Source: Myxococcales bacterium (lineage in GTDB: Bacteria; Myxococcota_A; Polyangia; Polyangiales; DASUME01). Taken from it: a stretch of DNA of 64,000 bases. The notes beneath the pieces were generated by a model. That model had not been told where the DNA came from. It worked only from the letters and a program-made list of their open reading frames with translations, and did not search any database. The DNA is taken from the NCBI GenBank assembly GCA_047601445.1, contig JASGJH010000001.1:5472001-5536000 (forward strand), read 5' to 3'. This document shows positions 1 through 19,176 of the stretch, piece after piece (positions within the stretch are counted from its first letter, which is position 1; the number at the start of each line of letters is the position of its first letter). Made by a program: the position numbers and the translations under genes.

Positions 1-138
1 GGAGAAGTCGACCAAGCTTTCGAGCATTCCAAGCTTTGTTACCCGAAGCCACACGCACCGGCCTTACCTGGAGATTAAGACTTCGTAATAATTCAAAACC
101 GCCCGGGACCAGCGCAGGCGCGCTATGTTCGCCGAGTC

Positions 139-807
139 GTGAAACTCCTGGTCGCCGAGGACGACCGCAAGTTGGCCAGCTTCTTGCGCCGCGTCTTTTT
201 GGAAGAGGGCTACGTGGTGGACACCTGCGCGAGCGGGTTGGACGCCGTGACCCAGGCCAAGAGCGGGATCTACGACCTGCTCGTGCTCGACTGGATGCTG
301 CCCGGCCTGGACGGCCTCGAGGTGTGTCGGCGCCTACGCGAGGGCGGAGCCACGCTGCCCATCCTCATGCTCACGGCGCGCGGCGAGGTCAGCGAGCGGG
401 TGCTGGGGCTCTCGGCGGGTGCCGACGACTACCTGCTCAAGCCCTTCGAGGTGGAAGAGCTCCTGGCCCGCGTGAAGGCCCTGCTACGGCGCGCCACGGG
501 CCACGGTCGCCTGCAGGTCGGCCCCTTGCTGATCGACCAGGTGCAGCGACGCGTGAGCGCCGACGGTGAGGTCCTGCAGCTCACCCAGCGCGAGTTCACG
601 CTGCTGCTTCACCTGGTGCACCAGCGGCATCGCGTGGTGAGCCGCTCGGAGCTGTGGAGCGCGGTGTGGTCGCTGCAGTTCGACCCCGAGTCCAACATCG
701 TCGAGGCCCACATGAGCCGGCTGCGCACCAAGCTCGGGCGACACGCCTGGATGATCGACACCGTGCGCGGTCGTGGCTACAAGCTGCGGTCGGAGCCCGA
801 GTCATGA
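139..807 (+). CDS. OmpR/PhoB-family DNA-binding response regulator
   Basis: Receiver (VAEDD...LDWMLP...KPF) plus winged-helix C-terminus (LTQREFTLL...VEAHMSRLRTKL...TVRGRGY). Confidence 0.95.
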   Translation: MKLLVAEDDRKLASFLRRVFLEEGYVVDTCASGLDAVTQAKSGIYDLLVLDWMLPGLDGLEVCRRLREGGATLPILMLTARGEVSERVLGLSAGADDYLLKPFEVEELLARVKALLRRATGHGRLQVGPLLIDQVQRRVSADGEVLQLTQREFTLLLHLVHQRHRVVSRSELWSAVWSLQFDPESNIVEAHMSRLRTKLGRHAWMIDTVRGRGYKLRSEPES

Positions 808-2189
808 GACGCAGGCGCCGCCTGGTGGCCTCCATCGCCAGCTTCAGCTTGGTTGGGTTGGGAGGCGCGTTCGTCGCCGTGTGGCTCTCGAACACCCACC
901 TGCAAGAACGCCAGCTCGACCAAGCGCTCTTGCACGAAGCGCGCGAGGAGGCCCGCGAGGTGGGCATGGCGGGCGGCACCCGTCTGATGATCAGCGCGCG
1001 CCCGGGTCCCCAGGCAAACGACGTGGGCCCACTGACCAAGTACGCGGCCCTGTACGCCGCGAACGGTAAGGTGCTGGCCCAGACAGGCAGCTTCGAGGGC
1101 GACGCTCCGCTGCGTCCCGAGTCCAAGGCGCTGCGCCTCGCGCGACCCTTCAACATGTGGCACCGCGCCGAACACCTGCGCGCCGTGTGGGCCGAAGTCC
1201 CCACGCGCAAGGGCCTCCTGCTGCTTTTGGCCGCGCCGCGCACGGACCTCGACGGCGACGAGGCGTTCTTGGGCCGTGCCATGCTGCTCGCCTTCGGAGT
1301 CGCCTTCGCCTGGGCCCTGGCCGTGTCGGCTTGGCTGGTCGGACGCTTCACGCGCGGCTACGAACTGGTGGCCAACGTGGCCCACACGGTGGCACTGGGA
1401 GATCTCAGCGCGCGCGTACCGGCCTCGGACCAGGACACCGAGCTGGAGCAGCTGGCGCGCGACGTGAACCAAATGATCGAACGCCTGGGCTCGTTGCTCT
1501 CCTCGCATCAACACTTCATCGCCCACGCGGCGCACGAGCTGCGCTCGCCTTTGACGGCGCTCTACGGCGAGCTCTCGCATGCGTTGCGCCGCGAGCGCGA
1601 CGCCGACACCTACCGCGTGATGATCGCCGAAGCCCTGGAGTCGACCCAGCGACTGCGCACGCTGGCCGAGGACCTGCTCGCCCTGGCACGCATGTCCAGC
1701 GATGCCGACCCCGAACCCAAGAGCCCGCTCCGCCTCGACGAGCTGCTCGCCCGCGTGTCGCTCACCGTCCGCAATGAAGCCGACGCCAAGAACGTTCAGC
1801 TCGAGCTCCACACGCAACCAGCATGCGTCGTTGGGCGCGCCCTCGATCTCGAACGGCTCTTTCGCAACCTGTTCGAGAACGCCATCCAGCACGCACCGAG
1901 CGGCACCCATGTGCAGGTGGAGCTCGCGCGGGGGTCCCAGCACCTGGTGCGCATCGAGAACCAGGGGCCGGCCATTCCGGACGCCGATCTCGAGCGCCTG
2001 TTCGAGCCCTTCGTGCGTGGCGCCAACGAAAACGCCGAGGGCCGCAGCGGATCCGGACTCGGGCTCGCGATCGCGCGCCGCATCGCGCTCAACCATGGCG
2101 GAAAGCTCGCGCTGAGCCCCGGACGCCCTACCGGCGTGGAGCTCACGGTGAACCTGCCTAAGTCACAAGGCGAGCCCCCCTCCAGCTGA
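804..2189 (+). CDS. HAMP-domain sensor histidine kinase
   Basis: Two TM segments, HAMP, H-box AAHELRSPLT, N-box NLFENAIQH, G-box GSGLGLAIA; ATG at 804 overlaps the regulator stop (ATGA). Confidence 0.92.
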   Translation: MRRRRRLVASIASFSLVGLGGAFVAVWLSNTHLQERQLDQALLHEAREEAREVGMAGGTRLMISARPGPQANDVGPLTKYAALYAANGKVLAQTGSFEGDAPLRPESKALRLARPFNMWHRAEHLRAVWAEVPTRKGLLLLLAAPRTDLDGDEAFLGRAMLLAFGVAFAWALAVSAWLVGRFTRGYELVANVAHTVALGDLSARVPASDQDTELEQLARDVNQMIERLGSLLSSHQHFIAHAAHELRSPLTALYGELSHALRRERDADTYRVMIAEALESTQRLRTLAEDLLALARMSSDADPEPKSPLRLDELLARVSLTVRNEADAKNVQLELHTQPACVVGRALDLERLFRNLFENAIQHAPSGTHVQVELARGSQHLVRIENQGPAIPDADLERLFEPFVRGANENAEGRSGSGLGLAIARRIALNHGGKLALSPGRPTGVELTVNLPKSQGEPPSS

Positions 2190-2209
2190 ACGGCGGGGGC
2201 TGCGGTCCG

Positions 2210-3607
2210 TCAGCCGCCGTTGGGCACACGCACCCCCGCGGGGTGCGTCTCGGGCGAGAGCAGCGTGATCAACGGCGACGTCGCGAAAGTGGTCACCAGG
2301 GCCATCACCACCATCATGGCGAACAGGGCAGGGCTGATCACGCCGAGGTCGAGGCCGATGTTGAGCGCGACCAGCTCCACCAAACCACGCGTGTTCATCA
2401 GCGCGCCGAGGCTCCACGCATCGCGCCGCGAGACCCCCGTGAGCCGCGCCGCCACCACGGTGCCTCCGATCTTGCCCGCGCAGGCCACCAGCACGATGGC
2501 TGCACACATCCACCAGCCCTCCGCCCCCGACACCAAGCTGAGCTGTGTACGCAGACCCGTGAACGCAAAGAACGCCGGCAACAGGAGAACCACCGCCAAA
2601 TCCTCGAGGCGCTGCTTCATGGTGCGAGCGAGCAAGGAATCGGCCGGCACGAGGGCGCCCATCAAGAAGGCGCCGAAGATGGCGTGGATGCCGATGGCCT
2701 CCGCGATCAACGCACACACCACCACGCCCACCAGCATCAGCGCGATGGCATCGCGACTCACACTCTGCTTCACCTCTTGAGCGCGCACGAAGCGCTGCAT
2801 CAAGGGCCTGCCCACCATGAACATGAAGACCATGAACGCCACGGTGAGCCCCACGGTGATGGCCGCCGCTTGCGGATTGGACTCAGCGATGCCCACGACC
2901 AGCGCCAACAAACACCAGGCGGTGGCGTCGTCTACCGCGGCGCAGCTCAGGGCCAGCACTCCCAGGTGCGTGCGGTGCATCTCGCGATCGGTGAGGATGC
3001 GGGCCAGCACCGGGAAGGCGGTGATCGACATGGCGACGCCCATGAACAACCCGAACACGTCGAAGGGAACTCCGGCCGGCGCGAGCGTGGGGTAGAGCCA
3101 GAGCGCGAGCGCGCCGCCGAGCAGCATGGGGGCGAGGATGCTGGCGTGAGAGATGGCGAGGGCCGCCTCCCCTTTCTTGCCGAGCTGCTTGGTGTCGAGG
3201 TCCAAGCCCACCAGGAACATGAAGACGATCACGCCGATCTGGGCGAGAACACCGATGAGCGGCACCACGGCCGGGGGGAACAAGAAGCTGCTCGCCTCGG
3301 GCGCGATGCGTCCCAGAAGGGAAGGCCCGAGGGCGATGCCGGCCACCACTTCGCCGATCACCGCCGGCTGGTGGAAGTAGCGGAACAGCATGCCGACCAG
3401 GCGCGACGCCACGATCACCACGACCAGCGCGAGCAACACATGGAAGAGCGTCCCGCCATGCAGGGCTGGACCGCCCTTCGGTGCGCCGACCAAGGTCGAA
3501 GGCGTGAGCTCGGAGCCCAGCGAGCGAATCCAGTACAGGAGTGCTCCCGAAAGGGAGAGCATCAACCCGTAAGCGACCATTCCCTTTGTTGAACGCTTGG
3601 TTGCCAT
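2210..3607 (-). CDS. Cation:proton antiporter (CPA2/Kef-type)
   Basis: Multi-TM; QPAVIGEVVAGIALGPS, SITAFPVLARIL, AAVDD, MNTRGLVEL motifs; start taken at MATKR. Confidence 0.9.
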   Translation of the reverse strand: MATKRSTKGMVAYGLMLSLSGALLYWIRSLGSELTPSTLVGAPKGGPALHGGTLFHVLLALVVVIVASRLVGMLFRYFHQPAVIGEVVAGIALGPSLLGRIAPEASSFLFPPAVVPLIGVLAQIGVIVFMFLVGLDLDTKQLGKKGEAALAISHASILAPMLLGGALALWLYPTLAPAGVPFDVFGLFMGVAMSITAFPVLARILTDREMHRTHLGVLALSCAAVDDATAWCLLALVVGIAESNPQAAAITVGLTVAFMVFMFMVGRPLMQRFVRAQEVKQSVSRDAIALMLVGVVVCALIAEAIGIHAIFGAFLMGALVPADSLLARTMKQRLEDLAVVLLLPAFFAFTGLRTQLSLVSGAEGWWMCAAIVLVACAGKIGGTVVAARLTGVSRRDAWSLGALMNTRGLVELVALNIGLDLGVISPALFAMMVVMALVTTFATSPLITLLSPETHPAGVRVPNGG

Positions 3608-3736
3608 GAGGACCTGCCAAAGGTGTCTCCGGCCATGGTCCCTGTCGAGGAGCAGCGTGAGCAAGCGTTGGATCTACACCGAAAATCCTGCAAGGATTGC
3701 GAGTGCGCGCGGTTTCGTGCGCGTGACCCAGAGGCC

Positions 3737-5092
3737 ATGCGAGCGCGGTCCACTCACCAGCGTGCAGTGCCTAGCGACGGTCTCCGCTCCCGCTGCAGCG
3801 AGGGCTGGCGGCTGTTGGCCTTCGCTTGCCTCGTGACGAGCATGTTGGCGAGCCAACGTGTCCGCGCCGGCAATGACGACAGCATCTTGGTCGGCACCGA
3901 GGCTGCACAGATGGCGGGCGCGATCACCGCGATCGTCTCCGACGGCGCCGCCGTCTACTACAACCCCTCAGGTCTCGCGAACACCAAGGCCGCCAGCCTG
4001 GACGCGAGCCTCTCCACCTATGGCGTGCGCTTCATCGCCGTGAAGGACCTGCTCGAGGGGCCTCAGAACTCCGTGGGCGCCAAGTACACGGACTGGGTCG
4101 TGGTGCCGAGCTTGGTTTCCCACGTGTTGAAGCTGAGCGAGCGTTGGCGCTTCTCCTATGCGGTGATCGTGCCGCGCGTCCAGAACTACAGCGTGGAGGT
4201 CACGCTGCGCGCCCCCGATGAAACGCGCTGGCAAGCGCTGCAACAGGAGCAGAGCCAGGAGATCGACATCGGCGCTGGCGTGGGTGGCTACGTGCTGGAC
4301 AACTTGCGCTTTGGCGCCTCGCTGCTCGGCATCTACAACACCGACAACCTGATCTCGTCCGCCTTCGCCGGCAACCCCATGTATCCCAACATGGCGGTCT
4401 CGGCGCTCTCCCTCGTGAGCACCCACGACTACGGCTTGAGCGTGCGCACGGGCTTGCAGTGGGACGCGCTCCCGCAACTCGCGTTCGGCGTGATGGTGGT
4501 GTCGCCAAACCTGGTGGTGGTGCGTAACACCACGGACAACGGCTCGGTGTTCACCCCCGGGAACGCCGCAGGCGTGCCGCCAGTCCAAAACTTCGATCGC
4601 TCGTCGGATACGAGCGCAGCCTTCGACCTGAGCGGAGTGCCCCAAGTGCGCATGGGCGGGGCCTACCACTATGGGCCCGGGAGCGTGACGCTCGACTCGA
4701 CCCTGAACTTCCCGCTCAACAACCTCACCTACGAGGGCGACCGCAAGTTCTCCTGGAACCTGCGCGCAGGCATGCGCCACCGCTTGACCGACACCGTCTC
4801 CATCGGCTCCGGCCTATTCACCGATCGCAACCCCTACCGCAAACACGGAGCCGACTTCTACGGATTCACGCTGGGTGCTTCCTTCGCCAAGGTCTTCGAC
4901 CTGAGCAAGGGCGGCTCACTCAGCGTCCTGACGAGCCTGAACGTCCGCTATGCCTACGGCTACGGCACCGCCACCGGCTCCAAGGTGCCCGCGCTCGAGA
5001 ACGCAGTGGGAGGACTGAGCTTCGACGCGGTGAGCACAGGAGTGCGCATCAACGAGCTCGGAGTGAGCTTGGGCGCGGGGCTGAAGTACTAG
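3737..5092 (+). CDS. FadL/OmpP1-like outer-membrane beta-barrel protein
   Basis: GTEAAQMAGA...DGAAVYYNPSGL N-terminal FadL-like motif; amphipathic strands; C-terminal aromatic (LKY); start uncertain. Confidence 0.7.
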   Translation: MRARSTHQRAVPSDGLRSRCSEGWRLLAFACLVTSMLASQRVRAGNDDSILVGTEAAQMAGAITAIVSDGAAVYYNPSGLANTKAASLDASLSTYGVRFIAVKDLLEGPQNSVGAKYTDWVVVPSLVSHVLKLSERWRFSYAVIVPRVQNYSVEVTLRAPDETRWQALQQEQSQEIDIGAGVGGYVLDNLRFGASLLGIYNTDNLISSAFAGNPMYPNMAVSALSLVSTHDYGLSVRTGLQWDALPQLAFGVMVVSPNLVVVRNTTDNGSVFTPGNAAGVPPVQNFDRSSDTSAAFDLSGVPQVRMGGAYHYGPGSVTLDSTLNFPLNNLTYEGDRKFSWNLRAGMRHRLTDTVSIGSGLFTDRNPYRKHGADFYGFTLGASFAKVFDLSKGGSLSVLTSLNVRYAYGYGTATGSKVPALENAVGGLSFDAVSTGVRINELGVSLGAGLKY

Positions 5093-12225: not shown

Positions 12226-13830
12226 TTACGGGGAGTTCTCTCGGGCCTGAATCCGTTCGTAGGAGAGCCCGAACCGTGCGAGGTACTTCCGCAAGCGGTC
12301 AGCATCGTTGCTGCTGTTCTTCTTCGCCCGCGAGGCCGCGAACAGTTTACGCCCGGCATCGCTCAGGGACTTCGACTCGCGACATACCCGCACCACCACG
12401 GCGAGCTGCGCTTGGTCGAACAGATCGATCTGCTCCAGGGCTTCCGCATCCAGGTACGCGCTCAGTGCAGGCTCGGGTGTGCTCGCCACCGGTCCCCAGC
12501 TGAATCGCAGGCGCTCGATCTCTCCGCGCACCGTGGCCACGTCGATGCGTCCGCCGGAGGCCAGCGTGGCCATACGGGTCACGGCGGCACGGAAGTCTCG
12601 AAAATTACCCAGCCAGCGCGCATCACGCGAGCGCGCGAACTCCAGGAACAGCGCGCGTGCTTCACGGTTCATGGTGACGCGCCGGTGCTGCTCGGTGTCC
12701 CAGTGCTCGAGCTCGTAGTCGAGGTTGGGCTCGATGTCCTCGAGCCGCTCCGAGAGCCCCGGCAGTTCGAACGTCCACAAGTTGATGCGCGCCAGCAAGT
12801 CCTCGCGAAATGCCCCGTCGCGCGAGGTGAGCTTGCGGTTGGTGCCAGCTAGCAGCTGAAATTCACTGGTCACCGTGCGGTCGCTGCCCACGGGCATGAA
12901 CTTCCGCTCCTCCAAGGCGCGCAGCAACATGGCCTGTTCGTCGCTGCCGAGCTCCCCGATCTCGTCCAGGAAGAGCACGCCGCCGTGGGCCGCACGCAAC
13001 AGGCCCGCGCGGTCGGTGGCGGCACCGGTATAGGCCCCCTTCACGTGACCGAACAGTGCGCTCATGGCGCCGTCGCCGCGGAGAGTGGCGCAGTTGACCT
13101 CCACGAAGGGACCCCTCACCTGCTGCCGATCACGCTTGAGCTCGTACACCCTGCGGGCGAGCTGCGACTTGCCAGCGCCCGTGGGCCCCATCAAGAGAAT
13201 GGGCTCGCGCGAGCGCGTGGCCACCAGCTCGAGCTGCTCGATCAGGCGATTGAAGGCGGCGTTCTTGGTGTCGATGCCCGCCTTGAGGAAGCTGATGCTG
13301 TCTTGTTTCTCGGCCTCGAAGCGACGCGCGATGCTGTCGTACCGACTCAGATCGAGATCGATGATGCCGTACTTGCCCGGCTCGGAACGCTGACGCGCGG
13401 GCGGGGGCGAGGCTTGCAGCAAGCGACCCGGAATGTGGCGCGACTCGGTGAGCAAGAACCAGCAGATCTGCGCCACGTGGGTGCCCGTGGTGATGTGCAC
13501 CAGGTACTCCTCGCGGTCGGGCGCGAAGGGGTAGCTGCGGGCCCAGCTCGAGAGCGCCGCGTAGACCTCCTCGAAGTCCCAGGGATCCTTGAGCGACAGG
13601 CCGTGGTGTCGGACCTCGGTGTGAGGGGACACGCTCACCATGTCCCGGGCCACCAGCTCCGCGAGCGCATGGTTCTCCGGATCGCAGAGCAGCTCGAAGC
13701 GCTCGATCAACAGGTCCTCGTGGCGGCACAGGTCCACGTTCGGCCGCCAGCGCTCCCAACGCTGCTCGCGCATGCCGCCGTCGAGCACGCTGCCCAGGAT
13801 GCCGATCACCACCGTCTTCAGCTTGGCCAC
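12226..13830 (-). CDS. rtcR: Sigma54-dependent RNA-repair transcriptional activator RtcR
   Basis: N-terminal RtcR/CARF region (RWERWRP, DPWDFEEVY, HITTGTHVAQIC), Walker A GPTGAGKS, GAYTGA, C-terminal NDADRLRKYLARFGL; divergent from rtcB. Confidence 0.97.
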   Translation of the reverse strand: MAKLKTVVIGILGSVLDGGMREQRWERWRPNVDLCRHEDLLIERFELLCDPENHALAELVARDMVSVSPHTEVRHHGLSLKDPWDFEEVYAALSSWARSYPFAPDREEYLVHITTGTHVAQICWFLLTESRHIPGRLLQASPPPARQRSEPGKYGIIDLDLSRYDSIARRFEAEKQDSISFLKAGIDTKNAAFNRLIEQLELVATRSREPILLMGPTGAGKSQLARRVYELKRDRQQVRGPFVEVNCATLRGDGAMSALFGHVKGAYTGAATDRAGLLRAAHGGVLFLDEIGELGSDEQAMLLRALEERKFMPVGSDRTVTSEFQLLAGTNRKLTSRDGAFREDLLARINLWTFELPGLSERLEDIEPNLDYELEHWDTEQHRRVTMNREARALFLEFARSRDARWLGNFRDFRAAVTRMATLASGGRIDVATVRGEIERLRFSWGPVASTPEPALSAYLDAEALEQIDLFDQAQLAVVVRVCRESKSLSDAGRKLFAASRAKKNSSNDADRLRKYLARFGLSYERIQARENSP

Positions 13831-13969: not shown

Positions 13970-13985
13970 CGGCACGCGGGCTGCT
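13970..13985 (+). promoter_or_regulatory. Sigma54 (-24/-12) promoter of the rtcB operon
   Basis: cGGCACGCGGGCTGCt = GG-N10-GC with the GGCAC -24 core, ~36 nt before the rtcB ATG. Confidence 0.8.
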
Positions 13986-14020: not shown

Positions 14021-15256
14021 ATGACCCGCGAGCACAACTACGACTTCCTCCCCACGCCCTCAGGCCTGCCCATCAAGAGCTGGACGCGCGGGGTGCCGGT
14101 GGAAGCTCCGGCGCTCAAGCAGCTGCAGAACATGGCGAGCTTGCCCTTCATCTACAAGTGGCTGGCCGTGATGCCCGACGTGCACCTCGGGAAGGGCGCC
14201 ACCGTGGGCAGCGTGGTGCCTACCCACAAGGCGATCATCCCGGCGGCCGTGGGCGTGGATATCGGCTGCGGCATGATGGCCGTGCAAACATCGCTCAACG
14301 CCCGCGATCTGCCGGACTCGTTGCGCGACGTGCGCTCCGCCATCGAGCGCGCGGTGCCCCATGGCCGCGAGGTGACGCGTGGTGGACGCGACAAGGGCTC
14401 CTGGGGAAACCCGCCCGAGGCGCAGATCCAGGCCTGGAAGGGCTCGCTCGTGGAGCGCTTCGACGTCATCACCGCCAAGCACCCGGCGATCAAGAACTCG
14501 AACCACGTGGTGCACCTCGGCACGCTGGGTACCGGAAACCACTTCATTGAGCTGTGTCTCGACGAGTCCGATCAGGTGTGGGTGATGTTGCACTCGGGAT
14601 CGCGCGGCGTGGGAAACCGGATTGGGAGCTACTTCATCGAGCTCGCCAAGAAGGAGATGGGTCGCTTCTTCGTGAACTTGCCGGACCGGGATCTGGCGTA
14701 TCTGCCCGAGGGAAGCCAGCACTTCGAGGACTATGTGGAGGCCGTACAATGGGCGCAGGACTTCGCGATGCAGAACCGCCGCTTGATGATGAGTCAGGTG
14801 CTCGGCGCGCTGCGCGGACTCGGGAGCTTGCCCGAGTTCACCACAGATCGCCTAGCGGTGAACTGCCACCACAACTACGTGGCGCGTGAGACGCACTATG
14901 GAGAAGAGGTGTTGGTGACCCGCAAGGGCGCGGTGCGTGCGGGCGTGGGGGATCTCGGGATCATCCCGGGCAGCATGGGAGCGCGTTCGTTCATCGTGCG
15001 CGGCAAGGGAAATCCTGAGAGCTTCTGCAGCTGCAGCCACGGGGCGGGGCGCGTGATGTCGCGCACCGAGGCCAAGAAGCGCTTCACCACGGAGGACCAC
15101 GTGCGGGCCACCGAGGGCATCGAGTGCCGCAAGGACGCGGACGTGATCGACGAGACGCCGATGGCCTACAAGGACATCGACGCGGTGATGGAAGCGCAAA
15201 AGGATCTGGTGGAGGTCGCGCACACGCTGCGTCAAGTGGTGTGCGTGAAGGGTTGA
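14021..15256 (+). CDS. rtcB: RNA 2',3'-cyclic/3'-phosphate-5'-OH ligase RtcB
   Basis: MPDVHLGKGATVG, VGVDIGCGM, GTLGTGNHFIE, HSGSRG, CHHNY, PGSMG, SCSHGAGR, DETPMAYK, VCVKG. Confidence 0.98.
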   Translation: MTREHNYDFLPTPSGLPIKSWTRGVPVEAPALKQLQNMASLPFIYKWLAVMPDVHLGKGATVGSVVPTHKAIIPAAVGVDIGCGMMAVQTSLNARDLPDSLRDVRSAIERAVPHGREVTRGGRDKGSWGNPPEAQIQAWKGSLVERFDVITAKHPAIKNSNHVVHLGTLGTGNHFIELCLDESDQVWVMLHSGSRGVGNRIGSYFIELAKKEMGRFFVNLPDRDLAYLPEGSQHFEDYVEAVQWAQDFAMQNRRLMMSQVLGALRGLGSLPEFTTDRLAVNCHHNYVARETHYGEEVLVTRKGAVRAGVGDLGIIPGSMGARSFIVRGKGNPESFCSCSHGAGRVMSRTEAKKRFTTEDHVRATEGIECRKDADVIDETPMAYKDIDAVMEAQKDLVEVAHTLRQVVCVKG

Positions 15257-15257
15257 A

Positions 15258-16325
15258 ATGGACGAGCTGATTCACATCGATGGTTCGATCGGCGGCGGGC
15301 AGGTGTTGCGTAGCGCGCTCTCGTTGAGTGCGCTCACGGGCAAGCCCTTCGTCATCGAGTCGATCCGGATGCTGCGCGAGCGGCCCGGGTTGATGCGACA
15401 GCACCTGACGGCCGTGCAAGCGGTGGCCCGCATCTGCGGCGCGGAACTGCGTGGCGCAGAGCTCGGCTCGACGCGGCTCGAGTTCCGTCCGGGCCCTGTG
15501 CAGGCCGGGGACTACGAGTTCCCCATCGGCTCGGCGGGCAGCGCTTGCCTGGTGTTGCAGACCGTGTTGCCGCCGCTCGCCGTGGCGGGCGGTGCGTCGC
15601 AGCTGGTGTTCGAGGGCGGTACGCACAACCCGCTGGCGCCGCCCTACCCCTTTCTGGACCAAGTGTTCTTGCCGATCTGGGAGAAGCTGGGGCTGGGCGT
15701 GGAGCGTGAGCTCGTGCGCGCGGGCTTCTACCCGGCGGGCGGCGGGCGTTTCCGCGTGCGGCTCGAGCCGGTGGAGCGCGTGTCGCGGCTGGATCTGCTC
15801 GAGCGTGGGAGCATGCGGCGCATCTGGGCCGAGGCCTCGGTGTCGAATCTGCCGATTCACATCGCACGGCGCGAGCTTGAGGTCGTCAAGAAGCGCTTCC
15901 AGCTGGACGATGCGGATCTTCTGCTGCGCACGCCCGAGGCTTACGGGCCGGGCAACGTGCTCACCATTTGCGCGGAGTTCGAGCACGCCACGGAGATGGT
16001 GGTTGAGTTCGGGGCGCCCAAGCTGGCCGCGGAGCGATTGGCCGAGCGCGCAGTGCGGGCCCTCGGGCGCTACCTGGCGAGCGGCGCCGCGGTGGGCGAG
16101 CACCTCTCGGATCAGCTGTTGGTTCCGCTGGCGATGGCCGGTTCGGGCAGCTTCTCCACGCTCGAGCTCACGGAGCACGCGCGCTCGAACATCTCGGTGA
16201 TCGAGCGCTTCATGCCGGTGAAGTTCCAGGTGGAGAGCGAGTCGCAAGCACGGACGCTGGTGAAAGTGCACCCGATGTTCGAAGCCAGGGATGAACAAAC
16301 TGGGACCGACGTGATCGCGAGCTGA
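15258..16325 (+). CDS. rtcA: RNA 3'-terminal phosphate cyclase RtcA
   Basis: GGGQVLRSALSLS, RPGLMRQH, GGTHNPLAP, GFYPAGGG, HLSDQL, TEHARSN. Confidence 0.96.
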   Translation: MDELIHIDGSIGGGQVLRSALSLSALTGKPFVIESIRMLRERPGLMRQHLTAVQAVARICGAELRGAELGSTRLEFRPGPVQAGDYEFPIGSAGSACLVLQTVLPPLAVAGGASQLVFEGGTHNPLAPPYPFLDQVFLPIWEKLGLGVERELVRAGFYPAGGGRFRVRLEPVERVSRLDLLERGSMRRIWAEASVSNLPIHIARRELEVVKKRFQLDDADLLLRTPEAYGPGNVLTICAEFEHATEMVVEFGAPKLAAERLAERAVRALGRYLASGAAVGEHLSDQLLVPLAMAGSGSFSTLELTEHARSNISVIERFMPVKFQVESESQARTLVKVHPMFEARDEQTGTDVIAS

Positions 16326-16433: not shown

Positions 16434-16510
16434 GGTGGACGTGGTGTAGTGGTCTGCACGCTTGGTTGTGGCCCAGGCAGTGGTGGGTTCGATTCCCCCC
16501 GTTCACCCCA
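16434..16510 (+). tRNA. tRNA-His (GTG), with encoded G-1 and CCA
   Basis: G-1:C73; acceptor GTGGACG/CGTTCAC; D stem GTGT/GCAC; anticodon arm CTTGG-TTGTGGC-CCAGG (GTG at 16468-16470); T arm GTGGG-TTCGATT-CCCCC (one mismatch); 3' CCA. Confidence 0.9.
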
Positions 16511-16534
16511 TGCAGCGTACGAGAGTACGCTGCA
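16511..16534 (+). other. Perfect 10-bp GNRA hairpin immediately after the tRNA CCA
   Basis: tgcagcgtac-gaga-gtacgctgca; no U-tract, so more likely a processing/stability element than a terminator. Confidence 0.6.
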
Positions 16535-16601
16535 GTTCGCGCGCCTCGCCCGTCGAGGGAAACGCGGCCCGTGTGCATGCGGCGAGTCATCCCTCGCGGC
16601 A

Positions 16602-16829
16602 TCTGCAGGCGGGTTTCGCAGGGACGCGCGATGCGCGCATTTCGGTGCGCTTACCTATGGGTCGAGGGTTCGATTCCCTCCCGCGGCGCAAGCTCGGTAG
16701 CTCAGTGGTAGAGCAATAGGCAACCATGGGCCTGCGTTCACGCGCAGGCGGCCAACCTCGGCCAAGACGTGCGCTGGCCGCTTCTCATCTCTCATGGTGA
16801 AGCGGGCGCGTCCTCCCGGGAAACGCAGA
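16602..16829 (+). ncRNA. Y-RNA (YrlA)-like ncRNA with circularly permuted tRNA-like core (16654-16720); outer boundaries inferred
   Basis: CCTAT-GGGTC-GAGGG TTCGATT CCCTC-CCGCGGC GCAA GCTCGG-TA-GCTC AGTGGTA GAGC-A-ATAGG: T arm, tetraloop-capped acceptor, D arm in that order; enclosed by GGGACGCGC/GCGCGTCCT, GTTTC/GAAAC, TCTGC/GCAGA. Confidence 0.75.
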
Positions 16830-17067
16830 GCGCAGCAGCGCGCGAGCCAGCCAGCCATGGACCGCTCGCGCAGCCCCGCGCTCCGCCATTCCCTGCGGAC
16901 GACGCGTTAGCTCAAGGCAAACGACGACCTCACGAGCCCTCGCTGACGCTTGCTGCGTCTAGAGCGCTGGAGGTCCTCCGCCGCCGAGCGGCTCGCGTGC
17001 GTCGCGGCCATCTATGTTCGCGCTCTCTGGGAGAGAGCGCTCGAAACGCTGAAAAAGGAGCGTCGTC

Positions 17068-18201: not shown

Positions 18202-19068
18202 TCACTCCGGGCGCTGCGCGAGGCCCCACTTCGCGATGGCGGCGAGCGCCGACTCGCGGCTACCGAACACGGCGATGAAGCGGTTCTTGTGGCAGAACCT
18301 GGCGTCAGGCACGCCGACTACCTTGGAGAGCTCCTCGTCGACCAGGCCGGCCCAGGCCTCCGGCAGCGGACGCTTCTTATCGAAGCTGTCGTGCTCCGGC
18401 GGGATGGCCACGAGCTGCCAGCGATCGCCCTCGGGGAAGAGCGCGTAGTCCGTGGGGTGTTGCGCGCCGCCGAACTCGAAGTACGCGCGCTTCCACTTCA
18501 GGTGGCGATCGAACGTCATGATGCGGGTGTGGTCGCGCAGCGCCTGATCCATGGCCTCTTTCACCGCGGCGCGCGCGAGCTCGGTGCGCAGCTGAGCCTG
18601 GCGCAGGCCGCGCAAGATGCCCTCGCACAACTGAACCGCTTCGGCGTAGCGCTCGTCGAACTCGCCACTACTCTCGGCCTGCTCGCACAGCGCGCCGACC
18701 ACACTGGGCAGACACGGCACCCCTTCGTCGGGCTTGCGGCGGCCGTTGTCCACCGCGTCGATGTAGTCCACCCACTGCTCCCGCAGCTTGCGCGCGAGCG
18801 CGAGATCGACCCGACCCTCGCTCTCGAGCCAGCTCAGCACCATGCCAGCCGACGAGAGCGGGCCCGTGTATTCGCGCTGGTGGTGATCGAAGCGACCGCG
18901 CGCCGCGTCGTACTCCCCGCCCACGTCGATCGCGATGTCGGCCTCGGCAATGCGCGCGAGATCGCGGGTGCGCACGAAGCGCAACGCGGGGTCGAGGAAG
19001 CAACGCAGCAGCGCTCCCGCGAAGACGTCGTCACAGTGAAAGGGGCCTGAGTGCGTAGCGACCAGCAT
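18202..19068 (-). CDS. MYG1-family (DHH-like) 3'-5' exonuclease
   Basis: THSGPFHCDD, RTRD, DVGGEYD, FDHHQ, LSSAG, IDAVDNG, FCHKNRFIA. Confidence 0.92.
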   Translation of the reverse strand: MLVATHSGPFHCDDVFAGALLRCFLDPALRFVRTRDLARIAEADIAIDVGGEYDAARGRFDHHQREYTGPLSSAGMVLSWLESEGRVDLALARKLREQWVDYIDAVDNGRRKPDEGVPCLPSVVGALCEQAESSGEFDERYAEAVQLCEGILRGLRQAQLRTELARAAVKEAMDQALRDHTRIMTFDRHLKWKRAYFEFGGAQHPTDYALFPEGDRWQLVAIPPEHDSFDKKRPLPEAWAGLVDEELSKVVGVPDARFCHKNRFIAVFGSRESALAAIAKWGLAQRPE

Positions 19069-19176
19069 CGCCCTGCTGTAGAGCAATCCTCGCCCCTGAC
19101 AAGTCTTTTGTACGGCACCCACCCTACCGCGAGGTTCGCTGCGCTCACGCTGTGCGCCCGGTGCCCGGGTCGGGCG

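Follow-up and report, generated by a model that had tools for sequence, protein, structure and literature searches.

A permuted tRNA-like element upstream of a Band-7/SPFH gene in a myxobacterial RNA-repair operon: a probable member of the predicted b7a-tRNA class

Introduction

In some bacteria, the gene for the RNA ligase RtcB adjoins a gene for a Band-7 protein and a predicted non-coding RNA called b7a-tRNA, and YrlA, a bacterial Y RNA, occasionally adjoins a Band-7 gene as well. Both observations are credited to Burroughs and Aravind in a passage of Wang et al. (2018, 10.1101/312249), which states that b7a-tRNA "strongly resembles an authentic tRNA". A 2026 paper (PMC13086221) notes that the rtc locus of Pseudomonas aeruginosa contains an SPFH gene. 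In YrlA, which occurs in RNA-repair operons, a T arm, an acceptor closed by a hairpin and a D arm are combined with a closing stem that replaces the anticodon stem. Chen et al. (2014, PMC4201824) looked for YrlA only in the vicinity of Ro60 genes. Our literature search on b7a-tRNA, on Band-7 with RtcB and tRNA, and on RlaP/RtcB/SPFH found no experimental study, and no b7a-tRNA family matching the RNA described here was found in Rfam 15. The 2016 article by Burroughs and Aravind in NAR reportedly names, in its abstract, modules of SPFH/Band-7 proteins and a novel tRNA-like molecule that may act as scaffolding cofactors. The vault particle, which consists of the major vault protein with its SPFH-like shoulder and of vault RNA, is another case in which an oligomer-forming protein with an SPFH fold is combined with a small structured RNA.

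Here we analyze a tRNA-like element of a myxobacterium. The window, which is the whole stretch of DNA that was analyzed, is 64 kb long. A predicted non-coding RNA that resembles a tRNA adjoins both a Band-7 gene and rtcB in the window, as described for b7a-tRNA, and rtcA is present as well, under RtcR. The likeness to b7a-tRNA is one of description only, and the window copy is permuted, with a sealed acceptor and no anticodon loop. The element has the arms and the closing stem of YrlA and also lies in an RNA-repair operon. It differs from YrlA in its score, in lacking the terminal stem with the Ro60 site, in residing in a genome without rsr, in its link to a Band-7 gene and in continuing into a large predicted downstream domain.

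Results

The RNA-repair operon

The window belongs to a genome that is assembled as a single contig of 9.5 Mb and is 98.7% complete. Pfam matches to RtcB and RTC confirmed the placement of the element in an rtcBA operon, which had been proposed in the initial annotation (Table 1). The candidate sigma-54 promoter before rtcB is weak, and matches to the consensus used were not enriched in the window (68 found versus 77 expected). The tRNA-His gene of the operon is diverged, since it scores 47 bits versus 62.6 bits for the housekeeping copy elsewhere and has a U-C mismatch in the T stem. Its orthologue in the congener G001 is identical at 67 of 76 positions, and three acceptor pairs are altered yet paired. 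It has the look of a spare tRNA gene attached to the repair operon. Directly past its CCA lies a perfect 10-bp hairpin with a GAGA loop (16511-16534), which is absent from G001, where the alignment has a gap. Elsewhere in the same genome, a further ARAGORN call, a 'tRNA-His' of 94 nt (C1:2555890-2555983), has 71% G+C and a long extra arm and looks doubtful.

The Band-7 gene begins 348 nt downstream of the core on the same strand. The MYG1-family gene that converges on it is probably unrelated to the module, because tblastn found no copy of it in 80 Band-7 loci (the best 80 of 438).

Table 1. Positions of genes and RNA features in the window
Feature	Position	Strand	Evidence or remark
rtcR (RtcR/CARF N-domain and sigma-54 activator)	12226-13830	-	Pfam RtcR 272 bits, Sigma54_activat 152 bits; divergent from rtcB
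Candidate sigma-54 promoter GG-N10-GC, weak	13970-13984	+	37 nt before rtcB; 2 mismatches
rtcB, RNA ligase	14021-15256	+	Pfam RtcB 439 bits
rtcA, RNA 3'-phosphate cyclase	15258-16325	+	Pfam RTC 250 bits and RTC_insert
tRNA-His(GUG), encoded G-1 and CCA	16434-16510	+	ARAGORN; Rfam tRNA 47 bits
UUCG-loop hairpin, 3 nt 5' of core	16635-16650	+	6 pairs
tRNA-like core, whole	16654-16720	+	sequence reading, partial YrlA match, R1 match, covariation in 42 relatives
Closing strand CCTAT	16654-16658	+	pairs with ATAGG 16716-16720
Variable loop, 5 nt	16659-16663	+	
T arm, loop TTCGATT	16664-16680	+	
Acceptor-like stem	16681-16687 with 16692-16697	+	6 pairs and one bulged C
GCAA loop sealing acceptor	16688-16691	+	
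D arm, preceded by TA	16700-16714	+	
Closing strand ATAGG	16716-16720	+	back-pairs to CCTAT
GC-rich hairpin 3' of core	16730-16749	+	complementary stretches
Long-range helix, 5' strand	16760-16780	+	RNAalifold, 9 sequences
Long-range helix, 3' strand, 58 nt before Band-7 start codon	16989-17009	+	RNAalifold; 14/15 pairs in window
Band-7/SPFH gene, 367 aa	17068-18171	+	Pfam Band_7 83 bits
MYG1/UPF0160-family gene, converging on Band-7 gene	18202-19122	-	

Anatomy of the tRNA-like core

The T arm, sealed acceptor, D arm and closing strands that the initial annotation had read at 16654-16720 agree with our reading base for base. The core does not behave as a canonical tRNA: the acceptor is closed by GCAA, there is no CCA, no anticodon loop and no cloverleaf order, and neither ARAGORN nor the Rfam tRNA model called it as a tRNA. 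The Rfam model of YrlA (RF02553) matches 16656-16718 with 37.5 bits (E 1.6e-6), only over model positions 23-85 of 114, and the gathering score of 69 bits is not reached. The terminal stem of YrlA with the Ro60 site (model positions 1-22 and 86-114) was unmatched in the core and in its G001 orthologue. At the gathering threshold, Rfam 15 reported the tRNA-His gene alone in the scanned stretch and gave no match to the core. Two other RF02553 matches in the genome (L002 and L003) were rejected as Y RNAs, as they are pairs of adjacent tRNA genes.

R1, a covariance model of the core, was built from 12 sequences and gives the window core 70.2 bits. The next R1 matches in the same genome reach at most 39.7 bits and were found on inspection to be junctions between neighboring tRNA genes. 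When 16511-16900 was compared with 41 relatives by blastn, the core alone was matched in three genomes, and one tRNA/SRP locus was matched in addition. Single-sequence folding of the 76-nt core gave a z of -0.79 and a minimum free energy structure that misses the D arm. Folding the whole spacers of the window and G001 brought no improvement, and single-sequence folding was judged uninformative in this GC-rich DNA.

Covariation of the core and an anticodon-like hairpin

Covariation was analyzed in 71 sequences (69 Band-7-linked loci, the window and G001), 42 of which could be parsed by simple expressions that describe a canonical D arm. The 29 sequences outside the parse are mostly of a Kofleriaceae type with a different D arm, or have long inserts in the acceptor loop. 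Among the 42 parsed sequences, 99.5% of the cells in the T stem are paired, with up to 5 pair types per position, and 92.2% of those in the acceptor stem are paired, with 5 or 6 pair types at several positions. The D stem is paired in 99.4% of cells and is nearly invariant, and therefore it is uninformative on covariation. The closing stem is paired in 75.7% of cells, versus a mean of 49.7% and a maximum of 59.5% in 1000 shuffles. When its 5' strand was slid by 1-3 nt, pairing was 24-40%; the signal is carried by the four inner pairs. Because covariation is seen in the T, acceptor and closing stems of 42 relatives, the core exceeds chance, and the YrlA-like topology is under selection. The initial annotation had claimed a YrlA-like, circularly permuted tRNA and had proposed covariation in spacers of related myxobacteria as a check. 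The anatomy, the partial YrlA match and the covariation of the three stems all bear out this topology.

A perfect 5-bp hairpin with a 7-nt loop of the consensus C-U-N-N-N-A-A, the pattern typical of anticodon loops, was found in 29 of the 42 parsed sequences. It is built from the 3' closing strand itself in 13 copies and begins 0-6 nt past this strand in the other 16 (2 nt or less in 14). This hairpin was not found in the window copy, where the best candidate has 3 of 5 pairs, and it is present in G001. Judged against G001, it looks as if the anticodon-like arm of the window copy had been deleted. Several spacer blocks kept in relatives are also missing from the window copy. Because the hairpin and these blocks are absent, the window copy may be a reduced or decaying one.

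Two further observations were made by eye. The loci L136-L166 (Kofleriaceae/Haliangiales), in which the RNA lies about 300-400 nt upstream of the Band-7 gene, form a subclass whose D arm differs. Its anticodon-like arm is local, and it has a long closing helix of its own, in which sequence 5' of the T arm pairs with sequence 3' of the anticodon arm; this subclass is outside the covariation counts. In L088, L089, L093 and L094, a small hairpin just past the anticodon-like hairpin is a candidate H-type pseudoknot, whose loop could pair with a stretch beyond an A-rich linker and whose sequences vary among the loci.

Association with the Band-7 gene

When the 401 genomes of the order were searched for a pattern that runs from the T loop to the D arm, 67 had matches. 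Among the matches listed, 22 overlap ARAGORN tRNA calls and are tRNA genes or junctions between them. The elements with a sealed acceptor fall into two groups. Those of the first group, at 15 loci, adjoin Rsr orthologues and are ordinary Y RNAs. Those of the second group are found in 12 genomes, including the window genome, and have a Band-7 orthologue (59-65% identical) downstream on the same strand.

Band-7 relatives were searched for with an alignment of eight proteins, using one genome per species, and the best 80 of 438 were kept. According to the record titles, nearly all of these 80 loci are from Myxococcota (Polyangiales, Kofleriaceae/Haliangiales, Nannocystaceae and Labilithrix luteola), and a few are titled simply as Proteobacteria or as an uncultured bacterium. 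In 69 of these 80 loci, R1 detected the element on the strand of the Band-7 gene, 219-540 nt upstream of it. The 11 misses include three loci with less than 140 nt of upstream sequence, one partial match and one weak match. RtcB was found within 3 kb in 3 of the same 80 loci (best 80 of 438), RtcR likewise in 3, and Rsr in 1. In 12 Band-7 loci sampled with Pfam, the neighbors were unrelated. Thus, in contrast to the context described for b7a-tRNA, the pair in Myxococcota mostly has no RtcB within 3 kb.

Same-strand tRNA genes lie upstream of the element in 25 of the 69 loci drawn from the best 80 of 438. At least five such genes, and up to 20, are present in 15 of these 25, while the window has one. 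Arrays of 13-20 tRNA genes stand directly before the RNA-Band-7 pair in the upstream 3 kb of loci in several Polyangiales MAGs (L092, L116, L129, L098 and L091). The cultured strain Labilithrix luteola DSM 27648 (NZ_CP012333.1; L114, positions 6-3001) has both modules side by side: an rsr orthologue comes first, three R1 matches of 53.5, 46.2 and 51.5 bits follow, and the Band-7 gene is last.

Within the genus, the element was found in one of nine congeners, G001, with an R1 score of 79.8 bits. The remaining R1 matches in the genus do not exceed 46 bits, and we presume that those outside the window genome are junctions of tRNA genes. The window genome (G000) and G001 each contain the full-strength RNA and the Band-7 orthologue, which in G001 is a C-terminal fragment at a contig edge. 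Neither the RNA nor the Band-7 orthologue was found in the other eight genomes of the genus, which are MAGs of 72-97% completeness. The gene neighborhoods show that the predicted RNA is tied to the Band-7 gene, rather than to RtcB or Ro60, and that the two are inherited together.

Absence of Ro60 and comparison with a congener

TROVE (PF05731) gave no match in the window or in the whole genome, and control genomes were positive. The vWA domain of Ro60 (PF25045) gave no match in the whole genome either, and the Rsr protein of G001 detected no Rsr there (best tblastn E 0.99). The same query detected Rsr genes of 51-65% identity in many loci of the order, indicating that it is sensitive. The initial annotation had stated that the 64 kb contains no TROVE/Rsr gene, and this statement now extends to the whole genome. 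It had also called an element without Ro60 unusual, which no longer stands: the element belongs to a class linked to Band-7/SPFH, and this link has already been predicted in print. When TROVE and the Rsr protein of G001 were used as queries, Rsr was undetectable in 8 of the 12 genomes of the order that have the RNA-Band-7 pair (G000, G021, G038, G089, G102, G110, G250 and G375; 85-99% complete), while positive controls were detected. The other four (G011, G013, G257 and G262) are Rsr-positive. Since this RNA class travels with the Band-7 gene and not with Ro60, the missing Ro60 is expected and not strange.

G001 offers a direct comparison. Its contig L082 (G001:C485) contains, in this order, rtcA, 6-7 tRNA genes, an HNH nuclease domain, one tRNA gene, a canonical YrlA, rsr (TROVE and vWA_Ro60), the tRNA-His orthologue and the element orthologue, after which the contig ends. 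The block of tRNA genes, HNH domain, YrlA and rsr between rtcA and the tRNA-His orthologue (1735-4738) is missing from the window genome. The canonical YrlA of G001 scores 72.6 bits over model positions 1-114, whereas the element orthologue scores 36.9 bits with RF02553, over positions 23-85 only. Because G001 has a canonical YrlA and a separate orthologue of the element, the element is a second RNA that is distinct from the Ro-type Y RNA. One operon of G001 thus contains both a Ro-type and a Band-7-type RNA. Between the window and G001, 60 of 72 positions are identical in the core, compared with 68 of 140 in the 5' flank and 45 of 107 in the 3' flank.

A downstream domain closed by a long-range helix

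The initial annotation had placed the core in a fold of 230 nt. The hairpins of this fold (16635-16650, 16730-16749 and 16778-16805) and its three outer helices are present as complementary stretches, but the outer helices are not conserved: 1/5, 0/5 and 3/9 of their pairs are kept in G001, versus 5/5 in the closing stem, 5/5 in the T stem and 4/4 in the D stem. Because the three outer helices fail in this congener, the 230-nt fold is unsupported. The folding of the 228-nt stretch was also no better than that of its shuffles (z -1.80; 8 of 200 shuffles were as good). At the place of the UUCG hairpin, G001 has a 6-bp hairpin with a different loop; this was read by eye, and MAFFT misaligns the two.

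The more general idea of a larger RNA held up, with the extension running downstream, over 16760-17009, and not through helices closing around the core. RNAalifold was applied to the spacers of the window and the eight relatives with the closest Band-7 proteins (9 of 70 sequences), and it predicted a long-range helix that encloses about 250 nt. In this helix 89.6% of cells are paired, versus 75.9% in shuffles (none of 500 reached the observed value) and 41-53% when the strands were slid, and changes on both sides are seen at 12 of 15 pairs of the nine-sequence alignment. In a scan with a fixed template, 30 of 70 loci had 14 or more of the 15 pairs, versus 19 of 210 pairings with a foreign 3' partner. 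RNAduplex, applied to the 5' and 3' segments of the spacers, was non-discriminating (mean -85.9 kcal/mol for own partners and -81.1 kcal/mol for foreign ones) and was replaced by the alignment-based pair count and the fixed-template scan. The long-range helix crosses the outer helices of the 230-nt fold, and therefore both cannot coexist in a nested fold. The covariation shows a predicted RNA that extends into a downstream domain of about 250 nt, closed by this helix and reaching almost to the Band-7 start codon. No terminator-like site was found between the core and the Band-7 gene in the window.

The SPFH protein

The SPFH domain is recognized by sequence (PF01145, 83.3 bits versus a cut-off of 23.6). 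The structural model of the Band-7 protein (pLDDT 74.8) consists of three five-stranded N-terminal beta units, the SPFH domain and a long helix, and its best structural match is the SPFH domain of stomatin (Z 17.0, rmsd 1.4, 104 aligned). No hydrophobic N-terminal segment was found. On the basis of this absence and the structural match, we read the protein as soluble, with a stomatin-type fold. Chains of the vault protein match the SPFH part at Z of about 11-12, and the best long vault alignment, which reaches into the repeats, has Z 10.5 and rmsd 6.6 over 185 aligned residues; in Foldseek, vault protein chains align over 383-467 columns (E about 1e-10). However, the likeness to the vault protein is weak outside the SPFH part, the matches to stomatin are stronger, and the vault particle is no more than an analogy. 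The vault likeness of the modeled N-terminal repeats is a lead only.

Discussion

We consider that the element is best explained as the tRNA-like module of a structured RNA associated with Band-7/SPFH, of the b7a-tRNA class, and as a probable partner of the SPFH protein; we put the probability of this reading at about 0.6. Its identity as a tRNA mimic that is linked to Band-7 and independent of Ro60 is highly probable. Membership in the b7a-tRNA class is inferred from context, not from sequence comparison. The element is a newly found member of the predicted class, in somewhat reduced form, and not a new kind of RNA. The loci compared show that the predicted pair exists in the absence of Ro60 and, for the most part, with no RtcB close by. 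The initial annotation had supposed that the RNA serves another partner than Ro60, and given the association with Band-7 and the absence of Ro60 it was probably right. The most likely role of the RNA is that of a partner or a leader of the SPFH protein.

The element lies on the same strand as the SPFH gene and is probably transcribed jointly with it, at the tail of the RtcR-controlled rtcB-rtcA-tRNA-His operon. As a partner, the RNA would bind the oligomeric SPFH protein, as a Y RNA binds Ro60. By this analogy, the formation of an RNA-protein particle is a tentative proposal with slightly less than even odds. The resulting particle might aid the RtcR-controlled response to damaged RNA, and the tRNA-shaped body could be a handle for tRNA-recognizing enzymes or for damaged tRNAs. 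A wider proposal, which we regard as rather doubtful, is that the RNA and the soluble SPFH protein with its beta repeats form a self-contained ribonucleoprotein, a bacterial counterpart of Ro-Y or vault particles that is independent of both Ro60 and RtcB. Its settings would differ: it might be part of rtc operons, accompany arrays of spare tRNAs (up to 20 genes) or stand alone, and the species-variable anticodon-like loop displayed by most members might read or bait tRNA-directed enzymes.

The adjacency of RNA and gene fits a cis-acting 5' leader of the SPFH mRNA equally well. The tRNA-like module and the downstream domain would then control read-through, processing or translation without a stable particle, for example as a target that tRNA-processing enzymes recognize or cut, or as a sensor of damaged tRNA. 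The element is on the same strand as the gene in all located loci, 219-540 nt from the start codon, no terminator-like site separates core and gene in the window, and conserved non-coding blocks and the covarying helix extend to 58 nt before the start codon. However, we identified no alternative pairing in which the ribosome-binding site would be hidden, and Y RNAs, which are the closest analogues, act in trans. We therefore consider a leader acting in this way unlikely, though a serious contender. A leader and a particle-forming RNA are compatible, and the two readings are not mutually exclusive.

The tRNA shape might instead matter by itself, in a decoy or sensor for tRNA-cleaving toxins, in a substrate of RtcA/RtcB, or in a permuted pre-tRNA that is matured by ligation. 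The location in the rtcBA operon, the anticodon-like hairpin in 29 of 42 relatives and the spare tRNA genes upstream in 25 of 69 loci are consistent with such a role, and a portion of Hughes et al. (2020, PMC7790460) suggests YrlA as a possible competitive inhibitor of an anticodon nuclease. The same portion reports no YrlA fragments on damage in Salmonella, however, and the window copy has no anticodon-like loop, its acceptor is sealed by 4 nt and lacks CCA, and RtcB is not nearby in 77 of 80 loci (best 80 of 438). The covariation of the closing stem indicates that the two ends stay paired, which also counts against it. Nothing favors the decoy or the RtcA/RtcB substrate, both of which the initial annotation had considered, over a partnership with Band-7, and we regard a role of the tRNA shape alone as improbable. 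Still less credible, and in our estimate very improbable, is a relic of a conventional Ro60-dependent Y RNA that was left when the window genome lost rsr. G001 does have rsr and a canonical YrlA between rtcA and tRNA-His, in the same operon as the element orthologue. Nevertheless, that orthologue is a separate second RNA (36.9 bits, model positions 23-85 only), the core is identical at 60 of 72 positions between the genomes while the flanks are at 42-49%, and the class persists in eight genomes without detectable Rsr, where it follows Band-7 instead.

Significance

Band-7-associated tRNA-like RNAs were predicted in 2016 by comparative genomics, and in the literature that we searched neither their existence as RNA nor their function is reported. 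This locus and its 69 relatives provide a testable RNA model, in which a permuted tRNA body is shut by a closing stem, can be accompanied by an anticodon-like hairpin and is followed by a large downstream domain. For annotation, YrlA-like matches are to be expected even where Ro60 is absent from the genome, if a Band-7 gene lies downstream. The two congeners give a natural comparison of the same operon with and without the Ro60/YrlA block. Together with the evidence that the RNA follows the SPFH gene and not Ro60 or RtcB, the locus offers a complete genome, of a cultivable-looking organism, in which to ask whether a soluble SPFH protein is an RNA-binding scaffold.
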